Shown piece after piece: positions 56,179-61,254 of a stretch of 64,000 bases of DNA. Within the stretch, counting starts at the first letter, position 1; the number at the start of each line of letters is the position of its first letter. The notes beneath the pieces were generated by a model. That model searched no databases, was not told where the DNA came from, and saw only the letters and a program-made list of their open reading frames with translations. This DNA is from Escherichia virus TH54, in the sequence record MT446420.1; one strand, 5' to 3'. A program made the translations under genes and the position numbers.

Positions 56179-56454
56179 TTAATTGTGCATTTGTTCTTTA
56201 ACTTCTTTGTATGCGCCAACTGCATTCACGACACCGGTAAAATCTGCTGTTCCACGATAGAGATAGAAAGCGATTTCAGTCAGGTGGTAGACTTCAAATT
56301 CTGAAAGATAAACGATAACGTCATAATATGCAACTTGACCCTGGACTTCGTTGAATACTACATCAAAAATTTCATGAGTTGGAAAATTGATGTTGTTGTT
56401 TTTGAGTGCTTGAATAAGAATTTGTTTGATGTTGTGAGTAGTAACTTGTTCCAT
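56179..56454 (-). CDS. hypothetical protein
   Basis: Track ORF 56179-56544; ATG 56454 with GAGGA SD. Confidence 0.5.
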   Translation of the reverse strand: MEQVTTHNIKQILIQALKNNNINFPTHEIFDVVFNEVQGQVAYYDVIVYLSEFEVYHLTEIAFYLYRGTADFTGVVNAVGAYKEVKEQMHN

Positions 56455-56501
56455 GATAATGTCCTCATTTGTTGGTGTGAGGACATTATTACATAGTTGG
56501 T

Positions 56502-57095
56502 TCAGCTTGTAAACCGGTGATAGGGAAATTTTTCTTCTGAACAAGAACGGAGGTACCAGCCATCCCCTTGTGACTTCTGCACAAGACCAGACTCAGGAAC
56601 AAAAGCCCCAGGCCCAGCAAGGAATTTTGGTTTAAATCTATAACCTTTGATAGTCTCTTTTACATTAAACATAATCATAAGGTCAGCAAGCTTGTGTTGC
56701 ATAAAAGGACCAAGATTAATCCCGTAACCATGTGGATAATCGCCATGACTACCAGTATGCACGGATATCCATTTGGAACCAGACTGGTGGGTCTTGACTT
56801 CGATTCTTACCCCTTCCTTCGAAACTACATCAAATGCAAAGGAATAGGGATTATCGTAATCTTCATCACCGCCGCATAAAAAGCCGGAGGTCCATTTAGC
56901 AATAGCTTGTTCTGCCATTGTAGCCACCATACATCTTTGCATGACTTGCTCACGGTCTTGACCTGGGTCTTTACGCAATGAATACCTGGCTGTGTCTACA
57001 ATCTTTTGCAGGGATTCAGGGGTTAAATCTTCTTTTGTATAAAGAAAGGAGGGCATCTTTTTCAGATGCTCCCATGTTTTACTCTTCTGAATCAT
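56502..57095 (-). CDS. denB: DenB endonuclease IV (probable, by position and size)
   Basis: 197 aa ORF at the T4 denB position between the ndd cluster and rIIB; GAGG SD; sequence identity not verified. Confidence 0.4.
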   Translation of the reverse strand: MIQKSKTWEHLKKMPSFLYTKEDLTPESLQKIVDTARYSLRKDPGQDREQVMQRCMVATMAEQAIAKWTSGFLCGGDEDYDNPYSFAFDVVSKEGVRIEVKTHQSGSKWISVHTGSHGDYPHGYGINLGPFMQHKLADLMIMFNVKETIKGYRFKPKFLAGPGAFVPESGLVQKSQGDGWYLRSCSEEKFPYHRFTS

Positions 57096-57348
57096 CTTTT
57101 ACCTCATCGATGCCGACGATTCCCCGGATATGAAGCTCGCCATAGTACAAACGGTCATTAGCATCAAATGTATCAGAATCCGGGTCAGGGAATTCCCCAA
57201 CAACTACTTCATCACATTCCAACCAGCCATAGTGAACATCACCTTCATGCTTGATGAGCTTACCACAGTAAACTATTCCTGCGTAATGGTGACCCCGGAG
57301 ATTTGAAACTTTGATGTCACGGTCTGACACATTGAAATGCTTAATCAT
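57079..57348 (-). CDS. hypothetical protein
   Basis: 89 aa acidic ORF. Confidence 0.5.
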   Translation of the reverse strand: MIKHFNVSDRDIKVSNLRGHHYAGIVYCGKLIKHEGDVHYGWLECDEVVVGEFPDPDSDTFDANDRLYYGELHIRGIVGIDEVKDDSEE

Positions 57349-57351
57349 AAT

Positions 57352-57561
57352 TTATTCACCAAAATAAGAGATACGAATTGCCAGTACATGAGCATAAGCG
57401 CTCATTGCATCTAACTGGGCATTCAAAAGACCTTGCTGACGAGCATCGAGAGTTTCAAAAACTCCACCCTTAATAAACTCTTCAAGAGCATTAATTTTCA
57501 AAACCAGCTGGTCATATTCTTCAACTACACGTGCTTGGAAACCTAACATTTCTTTAGACAT
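57352..57561 (-). CDS. hypothetical protein
   Basis: 69 aa ORF; 8-nt overlap with the HNH-AP2 gene. Confidence 0.5.
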   Translation of the reverse strand: MSKEMLGFQARVVEEYDQLVLKINALEEFIKGGVFETLDARQQGLLNAQLDAMSAYAHVLAIRISYFGE

Positions 57562-58045
57562 TGTGTTCTTCCATATATTTTAATCGAGCTTCATTTGCTT
57601 CTTCTGGAGTTGCAAAAGCTCCGACTTGAATTTGTTTTTTATTTCGCATAATAGTGGCTCGCCATGGTTTATTCAAAGCTCGTTTATCAAACGAGACTCC
57701 TTTAAATCCAGACTTGTTGTTATTATACGGGCGCTTATTTAAAGCATTCTCGCCTGGACTAACCCATCTGCAGTTATCGGGAGAGTACCCTTTATCGTTA
57801 TCTGTTCGGTCAAGTTGATGTTTGTCAGTGGGTCGTGGCCCCATATCTGTATAAAATCTTTCAAAATCATGCAGCCATTCATCGCAAACAGTGATACCCC
57901 GACCGCCATATCGAGAATAACTAATATGTGTTGGATTGCAACACCGAGCTTTCATGCCAATCCATACAATGTATTCAGGCGTGTGACCTAGCCCGTGGAC
58001 AATACCACGAGCCGAGCCATCTTTAGCAATTGTTTGTTTAATCAT
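57554..58045 (-). CDS. HNH-AP2 family homing-endonuclease-like protein
   Basis: 163 aa; C-terminal AP2 DNA-binding signature SGFKGVSFDKR...WRATI...IQVGAFATPEEANEARLKY; upstream HNH-like DNDKGYSPDNCRWVSPGENALNK; N-terminal YIVWIGMKARCCNP...YGGRGI motif. Confidence 0.7.
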   Translation of the reverse strand: MIKQTIAKDGSARGIVHGLGHTPEYIVWIGMKARCCNPTHISYSRYGGRGITVCDEWLHDFERFYTDMGPRPTDKHQLDRTDNDKGYSPDNCRWVSPGENALNKRPYNNNKSGFKGVSFDKRALNKPWRATIMRNKKQIQVGAFATPEEANEARLKYMEEHNV

Positions 58046-59018
58046 TGAAACGTTCGGTCACATCTTCAAGAACCAGGTAACCGCAAACCCTCATCTTACT
58101 ATCGGAATAATCCACCGGGATACTTACAACATCGCGCGGGTGAACTTTACATGATACGATGCGCCCATCACCATGACCAAAACCGCTTCCGATATAGCCT
58201 TTAGAGCAAACATGTAACCCGGTTGAACAGGTCTGTTCGTCATTGTCATTCACACGAGAGCGTGGCATTTTAACATATTGGCCAGGGCTGTTGTCGAATG
58301 TGTTTGAGTGACAATCTTTGTAGGTTGAACGAACCATTTTCCATGCGATGAAATAACCGTCTTCGGTGATTTCGATATCGTTCGCAACCAGGAAGTCAAA
58401 CAAACGCTGTACAGCTTTCTCACTCGGGTTCTCAAGGAGATTCTCGAGGAATGGCAGATAGAATTCAAAGTCTTCGCCATTTTGCATTGAATCAATGATA
58501 CGAGTAACCAGGCCAGAGCGCAGTTCAATTCCCTGATAGAACAGGCTACCACCTTCAATACGCACATCGCCTTTCACATATTTTTGTACTGCAGCTTTGA
58601 TTGAGATAAACTCGATAGCATCATCAAAACGAGATTCAATCAATGCCTGAATAATATCATTAAAGTGTTTATGGTCTTTTGTTGCGTTCCAGACCGTACG
58701 ACCTTCGGTGATGGAAACGAATTTGCTTGATGCATTCCATACGATTTCCGGGCGGCTTCCGCCAATTGTATCTTCAACAACCGGGACTTCAACCGTTACT
58801 GTCACCGGAGCATTAATCGCCACACCAACAGCTGCTTTCAGTGATGCAGAAATGGTTTTAGATAATTTTGATTCTTTATCATTTTTCAAAACACGGCGAA
58901 TGGTGTCAACCGATACACCGAAATTATCTGCTAGTTCCTGTTGGGTATAATTACCAGTTTTATAAAGAGAAACTACCTGGTTTTGGTCAAATTTGGATAA
59001 AGCTTTAATATTAAACAT
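58038..59018 (-). CDS. rIIB: rIIB protector-from-exclusion protein
   Basis: 326 aa; near-colinear with T4 rIIB (GNYTQQELAD, GDVRIEGGSLFYQ, FDFLVANDIEITEDGYF). Confidence 0.9.
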   Translation of the reverse strand: MFNIKALSKFDQNQVVSLYKTGNYTQQELADNFGVSVDTIRRVLKNDKESKLSKTISASLKAAVGVAINAPVTVTVEVPVVEDTIGGSRPEIVWNASSKFVSITEGRTVWNATKDHKHFNDIIQALIESRFDDAIEFISIKAAVQKYVKGDVRIEGGSLFYQGIELRSGLVTRIIDSMQNGEDFEFYLPFLENLLENPSEKAVQRLFDFLVANDIEITEDGYFIAWKMVRSTYKDCHSNTFDNSPGQYVKMPRSRVNDNDEQTCSTGLHVCSKGYIGSGFGHGDGRIVSCKVHPRDVVSIPVDYSDSKMRVCGYLVLEDVTERFND

Positions 59019-59019
59019 A

Positions 59020-61254
59020 TTATTCCTTATTGGCCGCTTCCACGGCCTTCATGATTTGAGCAACGTTCTGTACTTGTTCAGTTGACATGGCGTTACGGTT
59101 ATATAAAAAGTGTGAAACAATCGGGTGATTCTTTTCAAATTCAAAAACCATTTTATCGCTTGTTACCGAAGCGTTTTTGGTCAGGTCGTCATAAATCTTA
59201 TTACAAAGGACCAGAGTTTCCTGCATGGTCTTATCAACTGTTCCACTGTTATATGCATTATAAGCAAAGAACTTATTGAACTGCATTAGTTCAGCATAGT
59301 CAGTGTTCACATCTTTCTGAACATCTTTTGCATAAAAATACTTGAACATAAAATTCAATTCTGCATATTCAGACAGGATAGGAATATAATAACGCGAACG
59401 GCTTGAAGCGGCAATGTACTGGTCCGCATCAACTGAATCAATCAATTCCACATAACGATTGACTGCAGCTTCAATCAGACAATCACACTGCGCCAGCTTG
59501 GTAACCTTTTTCTGAAGCTGCGGGCGAATAACACAGAATTCATTGATTTCCAACAGGTTTGCCAGTTTGCACAATGTCTGGGTCCCGAAGTTCGTGACGC
59601 CATAATCCTGATTCAACGGGGAAATGCTGCTGCGGTTAATGAATACAGCATAACCATCGATTTCCTCTGCATCAGCTGCACACGTAAATTCTTCAACAGC
59701 CTGCCAGCGACCATTGGTTTTAGTCCAACGAATCACCGATGGAGTCTTTGACTTAACACGCTCTTTCGGGTCCGCAACCGGAATCCAGTCTTTTACAAGG
59801 GCGGTCAGTTCAGACGTACGATAGATATTAACTGTATCGCCTTTAAATCGTTCTTGAAGTTGAACCATCAGACGTGTTTGAATTTCGCTGGTTGGGTCAA
59901 CGAACAATAGACTACTACCTTGTACAGTCGGAACTTTACCAGATGCTTTGAGCTTTTTGGCTTTCGCGCTGGTGTCATACAGCATTGAACTGATACCACG
60001 AATCATCGCAATTCGCCCTTTAGCATCGTCAATAACAATATTCAAGGTATCATTATGAATACCAAACATGCTTGTCAGGCTTGCAGTATTCGTGTTCGAG
60101 CTTGAGTTACGCAGACGTTTCAGACGGGTAGTGCTATAGATATCATAGACAACCCCGGCATTAATAAGGTCTTTGTCCAGCTCGAACATTTCGTACATCT
60201 GGTTAAAAGTCAATTGTGATTTTGTAAATTTCGTTTCAGCATTACGAGCTTTCAGAAAATTACGAGCTTCATAACTCAGACTCTGCAATTCGCGATACGT
60301 ATGGCGGATACATTCTGATTCCTGCCATTTCTTACAATCATCTTCCATGACCTTCTTATCAAGCGATTCAATACGTTCAACGATATTTGCGACCGTACGT
60401 TTGTCCAGTGATAATGCTTCGCGAGAAGGTGCAATATCCAACGAACCCATCGGGAACTTAATAAAGACAACATCATTTTTGGCAGTCATCCAGGTTTTCT
60501 TTGTATAACCGTCACCAATCGGATAAACAATACCGCCGTAAATTGCATAAAGTCCATAACGTTCTGGGCTGCTATAATCAATACGCGCTGGAGCATAATA
60601 ATCATCAAATTCTGGGAAGTAATTAATTTCGCCTACGCCTTGCACTTCAGCCAGTCCAGCAAATGGACGCATGATATACGCAATCTCGTAGCGGAACTTA
60701 CCAAAATCATTACTATCAACCGGGACAACAACTTCAATCCCTGTGCGGTCACCAGGTTTCATTGGTTCGCTAAAGGTTGGCTTAATCTGTGGACCATCGC
60801 CATCCATATAAGCGACATAACCGTTAACTTGACCATCATGATATGAAATCAGGCTAAACGTCTCGGTATAACTGAACGGAGATTTAGAACCCAGGCCAAA
60901 GCCACCAATAAAATCGTTGGATTCAGCCTTGGATGATGCAAAGAAACTGTTATACAGACCTGGAGTATTTTCATCACCACGAATCTGGAAATCACTCATA
61001 CCCGGACCAAAGTCACGACATACAAAACGTGGGTCCAGTTCACCAGGAGCTTGCACAATGAATTTATCCTGACAACCATTGAGCATATGAGCATCAATCA
61101 TATTGGTAATCAGCTCACGAACAACCGCGCGCACCTTGTTTGTATAAAGGTCGCTGGTCAGAATCTTAAACACCTTTGGAGATGCCTGGATTGTGAATGC
61201 TGATGCCTTGGCACCATTACCAAGGATTGTTTCCTTTTCAGTTTCTAAAATCAT
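59020..61254 (-). CDS. rIIA: rIIA protector-from-exclusion protein (GHKL-like ATPase)
   Basis: 744 aa (T4 rIIA 725 aa); conserved order rIIB-rIIA. Confidence 0.92.
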   Translation of the reverse strand: MILETEKETILGNGAKASAFTIQASPKVFKILTSDLYTNKVRAVVRELITNMIDAHMLNGCQDKFIVQAPGELDPRFVCRDFGPGMSDFQIRGDENTPGLYNSFFASSKAESNDFIGGFGLGSKSPFSYTETFSLISYHDGQVNGYVAYMDGDGPQIKPTFSEPMKPGDRTGIEVVVPVDSNDFGKFRYEIAYIMRPFAGLAEVQGVGEINYFPEFDDYYAPARIDYSSPERYGLYAIYGGIVYPIGDGYTKKTWMTAKNDVVFIKFPMGSLDIAPSREALSLDKRTVANIVERIESLDKKVMEDDCKKWQESECIRHTYRELQSLSYEARNFLKARNAETKFTKSQLTFNQMYEMFELDKDLINAGVVYDIYSTTRLKRLRNSSSNTNTASLTSMFGIHNDTLNIVIDDAKGRIAMIRGISSMLYDTSAKAKKLKASGKVPTVQGSSLLFVDPTSEIQTRLMVQLQERFKGDTVNIYRTSELTALVKDWIPVADPKERVKSKTPSVIRWTKTNGRWQAVEEFTCAADAEEIDGYAVFINRSSISPLNQDYGVTNFGTQTLCKLANLLEINEFCVIRPQLQKKVTKLAQCDCLIEAAVNRYVELIDSVDADQYIAASSRSRYYIPILSEYAELNFMFKYFYAKDVQKDVNTDYAELMQFNKFFAYNAYNSGTVDKTMQETLVLCNKIYDDLTKNASVTSDKMVFEFEKNHPIVSHFLYNRNAMSTEQVQNVAQIMKAVEAANKE

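Follow-up and report, generated by a model that had tools for sequence, protein, structure and literature searches.

Freestanding homing endonuclease genes (HEGs) of phage T4, the Seg and Mob genes, are small genes wedged between conserved genes, sporadic in distribution and associated with co-conversion of their flanks; the Seg products belong to the GIY-YIG enzymes and the Mob products to the canonical HNH enzymes, and no T4 Seg or Mob HEG is known at the rIIB-denB.1 junction. A further layout is that of the IPA-HNH HEGs, in which an HNH-like N-domain invisible to the Pfam HNH_3 model is joined to an AP2 domain, as in ICP1 gp59, gp115/116 and gp209; the study that classed them as HEGs found no such genes in T4 and did not discuss catalytic residues (Barth et al. 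2023, PMC10448857). An HNH_3-AP2 class was described by Magnani et al. 2004, as cited in PMC2248197. The restriction enzyme PacI, whose type forms group 20 of the His-Me finger nucleases in Jablonska et al. 2017, works without the catalytic His, a Tyr in an omega-loop between strands taking over its role, and uses one metal whose ligands are one Asp and one Asn (PMC5714182, PMC4081073). CasPR repressors, which are encoded in acr loci of Bacillota prophages and require their CapR domain, act without cutting (bioRxiv 10.64898/2026.02.23.707548).

The stretch analysed here (the window) comprises 64,000 nucleotides of Escherichia virus TH54 (MT446420.1). Megablast of positions 56400-59100, which matched 44 phage records, gave Gapriverviruses (Straboviridae, Tevenvirinae) as the closest nucleotide relatives, with phages 212, MN01, DCP80, VR7, CJ20 and SP18 at 92-97% identity, and the window belongs to the VR7/SP18 group of that genus. 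Directly downstream of rIIB lies a gene for a 163-aa protein that a preliminary description, made from the sequence alone, had likened to HNH-AP2 homing endonucleases. The list of open reading frames bears out its extent and both of its 8-nt overlaps, one between its ATG and the rIIB stop (ATGATTAA) and the other between its stop and the ATG of the denB.1-like gene. Its embedding in the rIIB operon likewise held, with rIIA and rIIB upstream on the same strand and denB.1, a DUF7418 gene and denB downstream (Table 1).

Table 1. Coordinates of the gene, its domains and its neighbours in the window
Feature	Position	Strand	Details
Freestanding homing-endonuclease-type gene	57554..58045	minus	163 aa, ATG start; PHROG 374 E 7.9e-59
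Inserted segment, 502 bp	57550..58051		41-bp spacer there in HEG-less relatives; multiple alignment of 5 HEG+ and 6 HEG- phages
N-terminal nuclease-like domain, residues 17-105	57731..57997	minus	three helices with W..M..RC...YGGRGI.VC..W, then beta-beta-alpha
Beta-beta-alpha-metal core, residues 77-103	57737..57817	minus	predicted E77-80, E92-95, H97-102, and alignment to Pfam-positive HNH_3-AP2 proteins
Core codons	D79 57809-57811; R80 57806-57808; Y87 57785-57787; N91 57773-57775; N103 57737-57739	minus	N100 also in core
AP2 DNA-binding domain, residues 112-161	57563..57712	minus	three-stranded sheet and helix
Last 80 nt of rIIB common to HEG-less alleles	58052..58131	minus	co-segregates with the insert
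rIIB, 326 aa	58038..59018	minus	PHROG 609 E 9.5e-104
rIIA, 744 aa	59020..61254	minus	upstream on same strand
denB.1 homologue, 69 aa	57352..57561	minus	PF21825, Pfam E 2.2e-19; downstream of HEG
DUF7418 protein gene	57079..57348		between denB and denB.1
DenB endonuclease IV	56502..57095		PHROG 1360 E 4e-80

The gene is already present in GenBank in identical form. Unannotated ORFs of MN01 and DCP80 share 100% aa identity with the 163-aa protein, and VR7 gp292 (YP_004063973.1), named "HNH endonuclease" in RefSeq, shares 98.8%. The copies in VR7, MN01, DCP80 and 212 agree with that of the window in site and in 8-nt overlaps (98.8–100% aa identity), but their records offer an automatic name or "hypothetical protein" only, and the copy in 212 is frameshifted. 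Pattern scans near the gene for a dedicated promoter or terminator performed no better than shuffled sequences, and no strong ribosome-binding site was found for it.

The YGGRGI motif (residues 46-51) and the AP2-type C-terminus noted in the preliminary description were both confirmed. Pfam recognized AP2 only (E 2e-4, below the gathering score), with no HNH family at E ≤ 1, and no NCBIfam, Pfam or PADLOC model matched the N-domain, whereas PHROGs assigned the whole protein to phrog_374, "HNH endonuclease" (E 7.9e-59). The N-terminal half has a beta-beta-alpha-metal (His-Me finger) fold with conserved Asp/Asn at the metal-ligand positions, and its best structural match, with the preceding helical part included, is PacI. 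Sequence searches of the PDB with the protein and with a 40-sequence profile returned AP2 domains only, apart from noise (NEDD4, SusG), and no match to PacI. The suggested HNH-AP2 architecture therefore stands as regards the AP2 domain, the fold and the PHROG assignment, but not as regards a Pfam HNH_3 match or the catalytic His.

This layout, in which AP2 is preceded by an N-domain that escapes Pfam HNH_3 and that more sensitive profiles detect, is that of the IPA-HNH proteins. ICP1 gp59 shares 27% identity with the 163-aa protein over 115 residues (pairwise E 3e-6); both genes are freestanding beside conserved genes, and both products have W..M..RC, VC.EW, LD[RK] and Y.P..CR, although gp59, at 272 aa, is extended at its N-terminus, contains no YGGRGI and shows Lys (LDK) at the place of Arg80 (LDR) in the 163-aa protein. 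Canonical HNN/HNH_3-AP2 proteins (CHB7 gp26, VLCpiS13a) have the same domain order and align over the beta-beta-alpha core and AP2 at ∼32% identity overall, but they pass Pfam HNH_3 and keep the catalytic His, in contrast to the Arg and the different N-terminal elaboration seen here. We consider it likely that the gene is a further member of the HNH-like/AP2 (HNH-AP2 or "IPA-HNH") freestanding HEGs.

Homologues of the 163-aa protein numbered 6,743 at E ≤ 1e-5 in a large-database search, and a full scan with the 94-aa N-domain alone matched 111,181 cluster representatives (50% identity) at E ≤ 1e-3, of which 80,863 also passed E ≤ 1e-10, a very large His-less family that standard domain libraries miss. 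Longer members have a CapR-like N-terminus (CxCxxC...CxC); this zinc-finger motif is absent from the 163-aa protein, in which just 16 residues precede the His-Me domain. Many members contain two to four tandem copies of the whole His-less domain per polypeptide, often with an HTH-like module after each and CapR-like zinc modules before, and the conserved D/R/Y/N/N set is gone from one copy in 55 of 140 two-copy proteins.

The preliminary description had also pointed to DRTD (residues 79-82) as a substitution of the first His of the HNH motif, and had taken it as a possible sign of a degenerate derivative. The substitution is real, because R80 occupies the general-base position of HNH enzymes and falls on the His of CHB7 gp26 (HNH_3 E 2.5e-8) and VLCpiS13a (E 2.3e-17), two phage proteins with a Pfam-recognized HNH_3 domain that also carry AP2; D79-R80 align with their D-H, and N91, N100 and N103 with conserved Asn residues. 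Degeneration by loss of the His, on the other hand, found no support. Across 434 domain copies extracted from 270 family members, position 80 is Arg in 424 and His in none, so that Arg80 does not reflect decay of this copy, and copy-specific decay of the HNH motif was ruled out. The other key residues are conserved as well, with Tyr at position 87 in 410 of the 434 copies, Asn at position 91 in 433, Asp or Glu at position 79 in 374 and Asn at position 103 in 377; the complete signature [DE]-R...Y...N...[QN]xxN is found in ∼80%.

Tyr87 (94% conserved) lies in the loop between the two core strands, and the conserved D/E79, loop Y87, N91 and N103 are consistent with the PacI pattern. Given this loop position and the PacI precedent, we propose that the 163-aa protein has a PacI-type active site, with Tyr87 as the putative counterpart of the PacI Tyr by loop position and conservation. 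PacI (PDB 3m7k/3ldy) is the closest fold and has a comparable His-less HNH domain, but this restriction enzyme is a homodimer that recognizes an 8-bp palindrome, contains two Cys4 zinc sites and lacks AP2, and there is no match at the sequence level. Its two Cys4 sites are not reproduced in the family, where only three Cys are conserved (C35, C54 and C92, at 98%, 87% and 81%) with no evident fourth ligand; a structural zinc site formed by C35/C54/H76/C92 was considered and dropped, the co-variation table over the family giving it no clear support.

We infer DNA cleavage by the 163-aa protein; our literature search found no report of cleavage by any member of the His-less family. More tentatively, the whole N-domain family may consist of working homing endonucleases that use a PacI-type Tyr mechanism in place of the HNH His, an extension about which we remain rather doubtful. 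If it is true, the His-less family would form a distinct class of homing nuclease, the rIIB-linked clade of T4-like coliphages described below would be the most tractable system for proof and target mapping, and that clade may also help explain the tandem-domain arrays.

A serious rival, though we regard it as unlikely, is that the protein binds DNA without cutting it: the His-less domain and AP2 would together regulate genes of the phage, a competitor or the host, or act on them as a roadblock, as shown for CasPR proteins and for PLE CapR, and the cassette would spread by ordinary recombination. The general-base His is missing from all 434 copies, and His-Me folds without catalysis exist, as in SMAD MH1 (PMC5714182); lost catalysis should, however, relax the ligand and Tyr positions, and D/E79, Y87, N91 and N103 are kept at 86–99.8%. 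Tandem arrays of two to four domain copies are unusual for a catalytic module, but one copy in such arrays often loses the conserved set while another keeps it.

The same rival draws on the CasPR repressors (CapR and AP2), since these phage AP2 proteins, akin to the DNA-binding modules of HEGs, have been demonstrated to bind within genes and silence their transcription (bioRxiv 10.64898/2026.02.23.707548), and since longer members of the present family also have a CapR-like N-terminus. The 163-aa protein, in contrast, has no CapR domain, and its gene is part of an rII operon, not of an anti-CRISPR (acr) locus, in a coliphage that is T4-like and virulent. Judging from the published numbering, only ∼80 residues separate the CapR cysteines from the AP2 arginines of CasPRIB1, too few to accommodate the N-domain. 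Queries derived from the CasPRIB1 primers gave no relevant match in the phage collection or IMG/VR, and no Listeria phage appears among the 1,242 tblastn hits listed for a CapR-containing family member.

The preliminary description had suggested comparing the rIIB-denB interval across relatives, and a presence/absence polymorphism was indeed found there. We aligned the junctions of five HEG+ and six HEG- alleles, the latter (SP18, CJ20, PSD2001, UPEC01, DK-13 and Yersinia phage P8) consisting of rIIB, a short spacer and denB.1. The 502 bp of the insert stand in place of 41 bp of the HEG-less alleles, within which lie the final two codons and the stop of rIIB, the hairpin GGGGC-TTCG-GCCCC and a ribosome-binding site (GAGG). 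RIIB ends in ...ERFND* in the window and in ...EQF* in HEG-less alleles, the insertion having remodelled its last codons. In HEG-less phages denB.1 starts at an inner ATG (equivalent to 57549-57547) behind the hairpin and the GAGG Shine-Dalgarno sequence; in the window it is extended by four codons into the 3' end of the HEG.

The insert is carried by four of ∼28 distinct sequenced relatives (VR7, MN01, DCP80 and 212), and a tblastn search found copies with >60% identity only in these and in Morganella phage MP1. It is identical to the window at 502/502 positions in MN01 and DCP80 and at 498/502 in VR7, whereas the flanks differ from these phages at 80–105 of 1,674 bp (92–96% identity), a contrast supported by Fisher tests (p 8e-10, 1e-10 and 2e-8). 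In principle, a useful cassette spread by ordinary recombination could show the same high identity.

The insert did not arrive alone. The adjoining 80 bp of rIIB match HEG+ phages at 77–80 of 80 positions and HEG- phages at 64–71, with fixed differences between the two groups at 58056, 58059, 58105 and 58106, while rIIB positions 58372-58780 are identical to HEG-less CJ20 at 406 of 409 positions and to VR7 at 378 of 406. Because its HEG-proximal part is VR7-like and its distal part CJ20-like, rIIB is a mosaic whose proximal end came with the insert. This mosaic appears to be the footprint of gene conversion, and the 80-bp segment may represent a co-conversion tract and/or an altered target half-site. 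Over the wider interval 58372-59400 (rIIB/rIIA), the window is ∼99% identical to HEG-less CJ20, PSD2001 and DK-13.

The copy in phage 212 (L010:1455-1941) is 95.8% identical to the others, and a 2-bp insertion after the equivalent of 57897 breaks its frame; it is a decaying HEG. Its annotated ORF covers the C-terminal 106 aa only. The locus thus combines several HEG hallmarks, namely sporadic occurrence at one precise site, greater similarity of the insert than of its flanks, co-conversion and a decayed copy, and it shares the lifestyle of the T4 Seg and Mob genes. We therefore read the gene as probably a freestanding HNH-like and AP2 HEG that is active now or was very recently, homing into the rIIB/denB.1 junction of T4-like phages.

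It is very improbable that the copy in the window is a decaying remnant, once active and now non-functional. The HEG life cycle does predict decay after fixation, as has already befallen phage 212, and the residue after R80 is Thr, compared with Ile in at least 90% of 40 aligned homologues. The ORF is nonetheless full length with all invariant family residues present, and it is nucleotide-identical in three independent isolates whose backbones are 4–6% apart.

The nearest relatives of the HEG outside the genus share 70% aa identity with it in Morganella phage MP1 and 63–65% in three metagenomic T4-like contigs, and all four copies lie directly after rIIB and overlap its end; the paper on MP1 makes no mention of its homologue. 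Among the five T4-like lineages, aa identity is 57–70% for the HEG product, 38–56% for RIIB, 26–45% for DenB and 30–37% for RIIA. The insertion point in all five follows a conserved C-terminal segment of RIIB, VHPRDVVSIPVDY..SKMR.CGY.VL.DVT. Repeated homing into a conserved target would fit this rIIB-linked clade, and long-term retention of the gene under selection may also play a part. The good conservation of this clade, with intact genes in five lineages, is what would be expected of a useful gene, and hence of a protein that only binds DNA; the patchy occurrence, the existence of a pseudogene copy and the niches in an intron and an intein described below are, by contrast, hallmarks of selfish elements.

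The position of the HEG is fixed relative to rIIB and not to denB, the intervening genes being different in MP1 and L018. This bears on another alternative, in which the protein is an active nuclease with a main role other than homing, either cutting competitor genomes (marker exclusion) or processing DNA beside DenB, and its own spread is a by-product. The gene is two genes away from denB, in an operon whose functions relate to exclusion and the nucleoid, and bioinformatics cannot separate homing from domesticated roles (Barth et al. 2023, PMC10448857). We nevertheless hold this alternative to be improbable, given the lack of a fixed position relative to denB, the ∼24 of 28 close relatives that do without the HEG, and the co-conversion-like tract and altered flanking bases, which point to cleavage at its own empty site.

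Other members of the family occupy niches typical of HEGs. The Streptococcus phage (prophage) Javan129 encodes a 230-aa member, 48% identical to the 163-aa protein, between two lysin fragments (L016:2797-3489), with a CapR-like module, the His-less domain and AP2. It is flanked on either side by matches to group I introns (Rfam RF00028) of 32.8 bits and E 1e-5, short of the gathering score of 50, and is probably an endonuclease encoded by an intron within a split lysin gene. In the Salmonella Jerseyvirus vB_SenS_Psm147, an intein (C...HN/C) interrupts the product of the DNA polymerase gene (L008:654-3752) and encloses, in another reading frame, a 247-aa member (L008:2087-2830; phrog_374 E 1e-47) with a CapR-like zinc module and YGARGI...MDRIDTDGNYEPGN. 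It is a "hidden" out-of-frame HEG over the intein ORF, reminiscent of ShiLan/Pacc40 (PMC11855218). The member in Staphylococcus phage K was considered as an intron-encoded case and rejected, being a freestanding gene, and ICP1 gp59 adjoins the ICP1 DNA polymerase gene.

Under the homing reading, the HEG would share the transcript of the rII operon, and coupling to the rIIB stop, with which it overlaps, would give low-level translation. In a mixed infection, the protein would bind the HEG-less allele, that is, the conserved rIIB 3' end and the 41-bp spacer. The spacer hairpin is a plausible AP2 site because it is the only GC-rich element in the HEG-less target; its folding in HEG-less alleles is no better than that of shuffled sequence (z −0.23), and we therefore treat it only as a GC-rich candidate site. 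The N-terminal His-Me finger domain would then nick or cut nearby, with Asp79 and Asn103 (or Asn100) as ligands of a single metal, the loop Tyr87 in the role of the missing His and Arg80 stabilizing the phosphate. Recombinational repair from the HEG+ genome would copy the 502-bp insert together with at least ∼80 bp of adjacent rIIB. The resulting HEG+ allele would be immune to cutting, since it has lost the spacer half-site and differs by fixed substitutions in the rIIB half, both of which are observed.

For the genome itself, this is an annotation of the usual sort, adding one selfish endonuclease gene to those of T-even-type phages. Beyond it, an HNH-like/AP2 HEG lineage is tied to the rIIB 3' end in at least five T4-like lineages, and the locus offers a clean natural example of a seemingly recent homing event, with a mosaic rIIB, an 80-bp putative co-conversion tract and a decayed copy. 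At the family level, the His is missing throughout the sample, with Arg in its place in nearly all copies, while the loop Tyr and the metal ligands are kept. If His-less proteins do cut DNA, the PacI-like route would be new ground for homing endonucleases, and it is directly testable in easily grown coliphages.

Further variation was seen around the locus. Downstream of denB, a 121-aa ORF (56179-56544, minus strand) belongs to phrog_17571 (E 5e-60), of unknown function; its VR7 homologue, which starts later and has 91 aa, bears the annotation [quoted passage not shown], and PHROG searches of the 121-aa ORF returned unknown-function families only, with no nuclease signal. At the HTH-containing 5' end of rIIB (58790-59016), the window is ∼65% identical to VR7/SP18 and ∼99% identical to CJ20 over the first ∼230 nt, and two rIIB N-terminal alleles (HTH_7-like, Pfam E 2.8e-6) circulate in the genus. 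The DUF7418 slot is a second variable cassette of the operon: Yersinia phage P8 and DK-13 carry there a divergent 106-aa allele of phrog_2237, with ∼70% DNA identity compared to 93–96% in the neighbouring genes.
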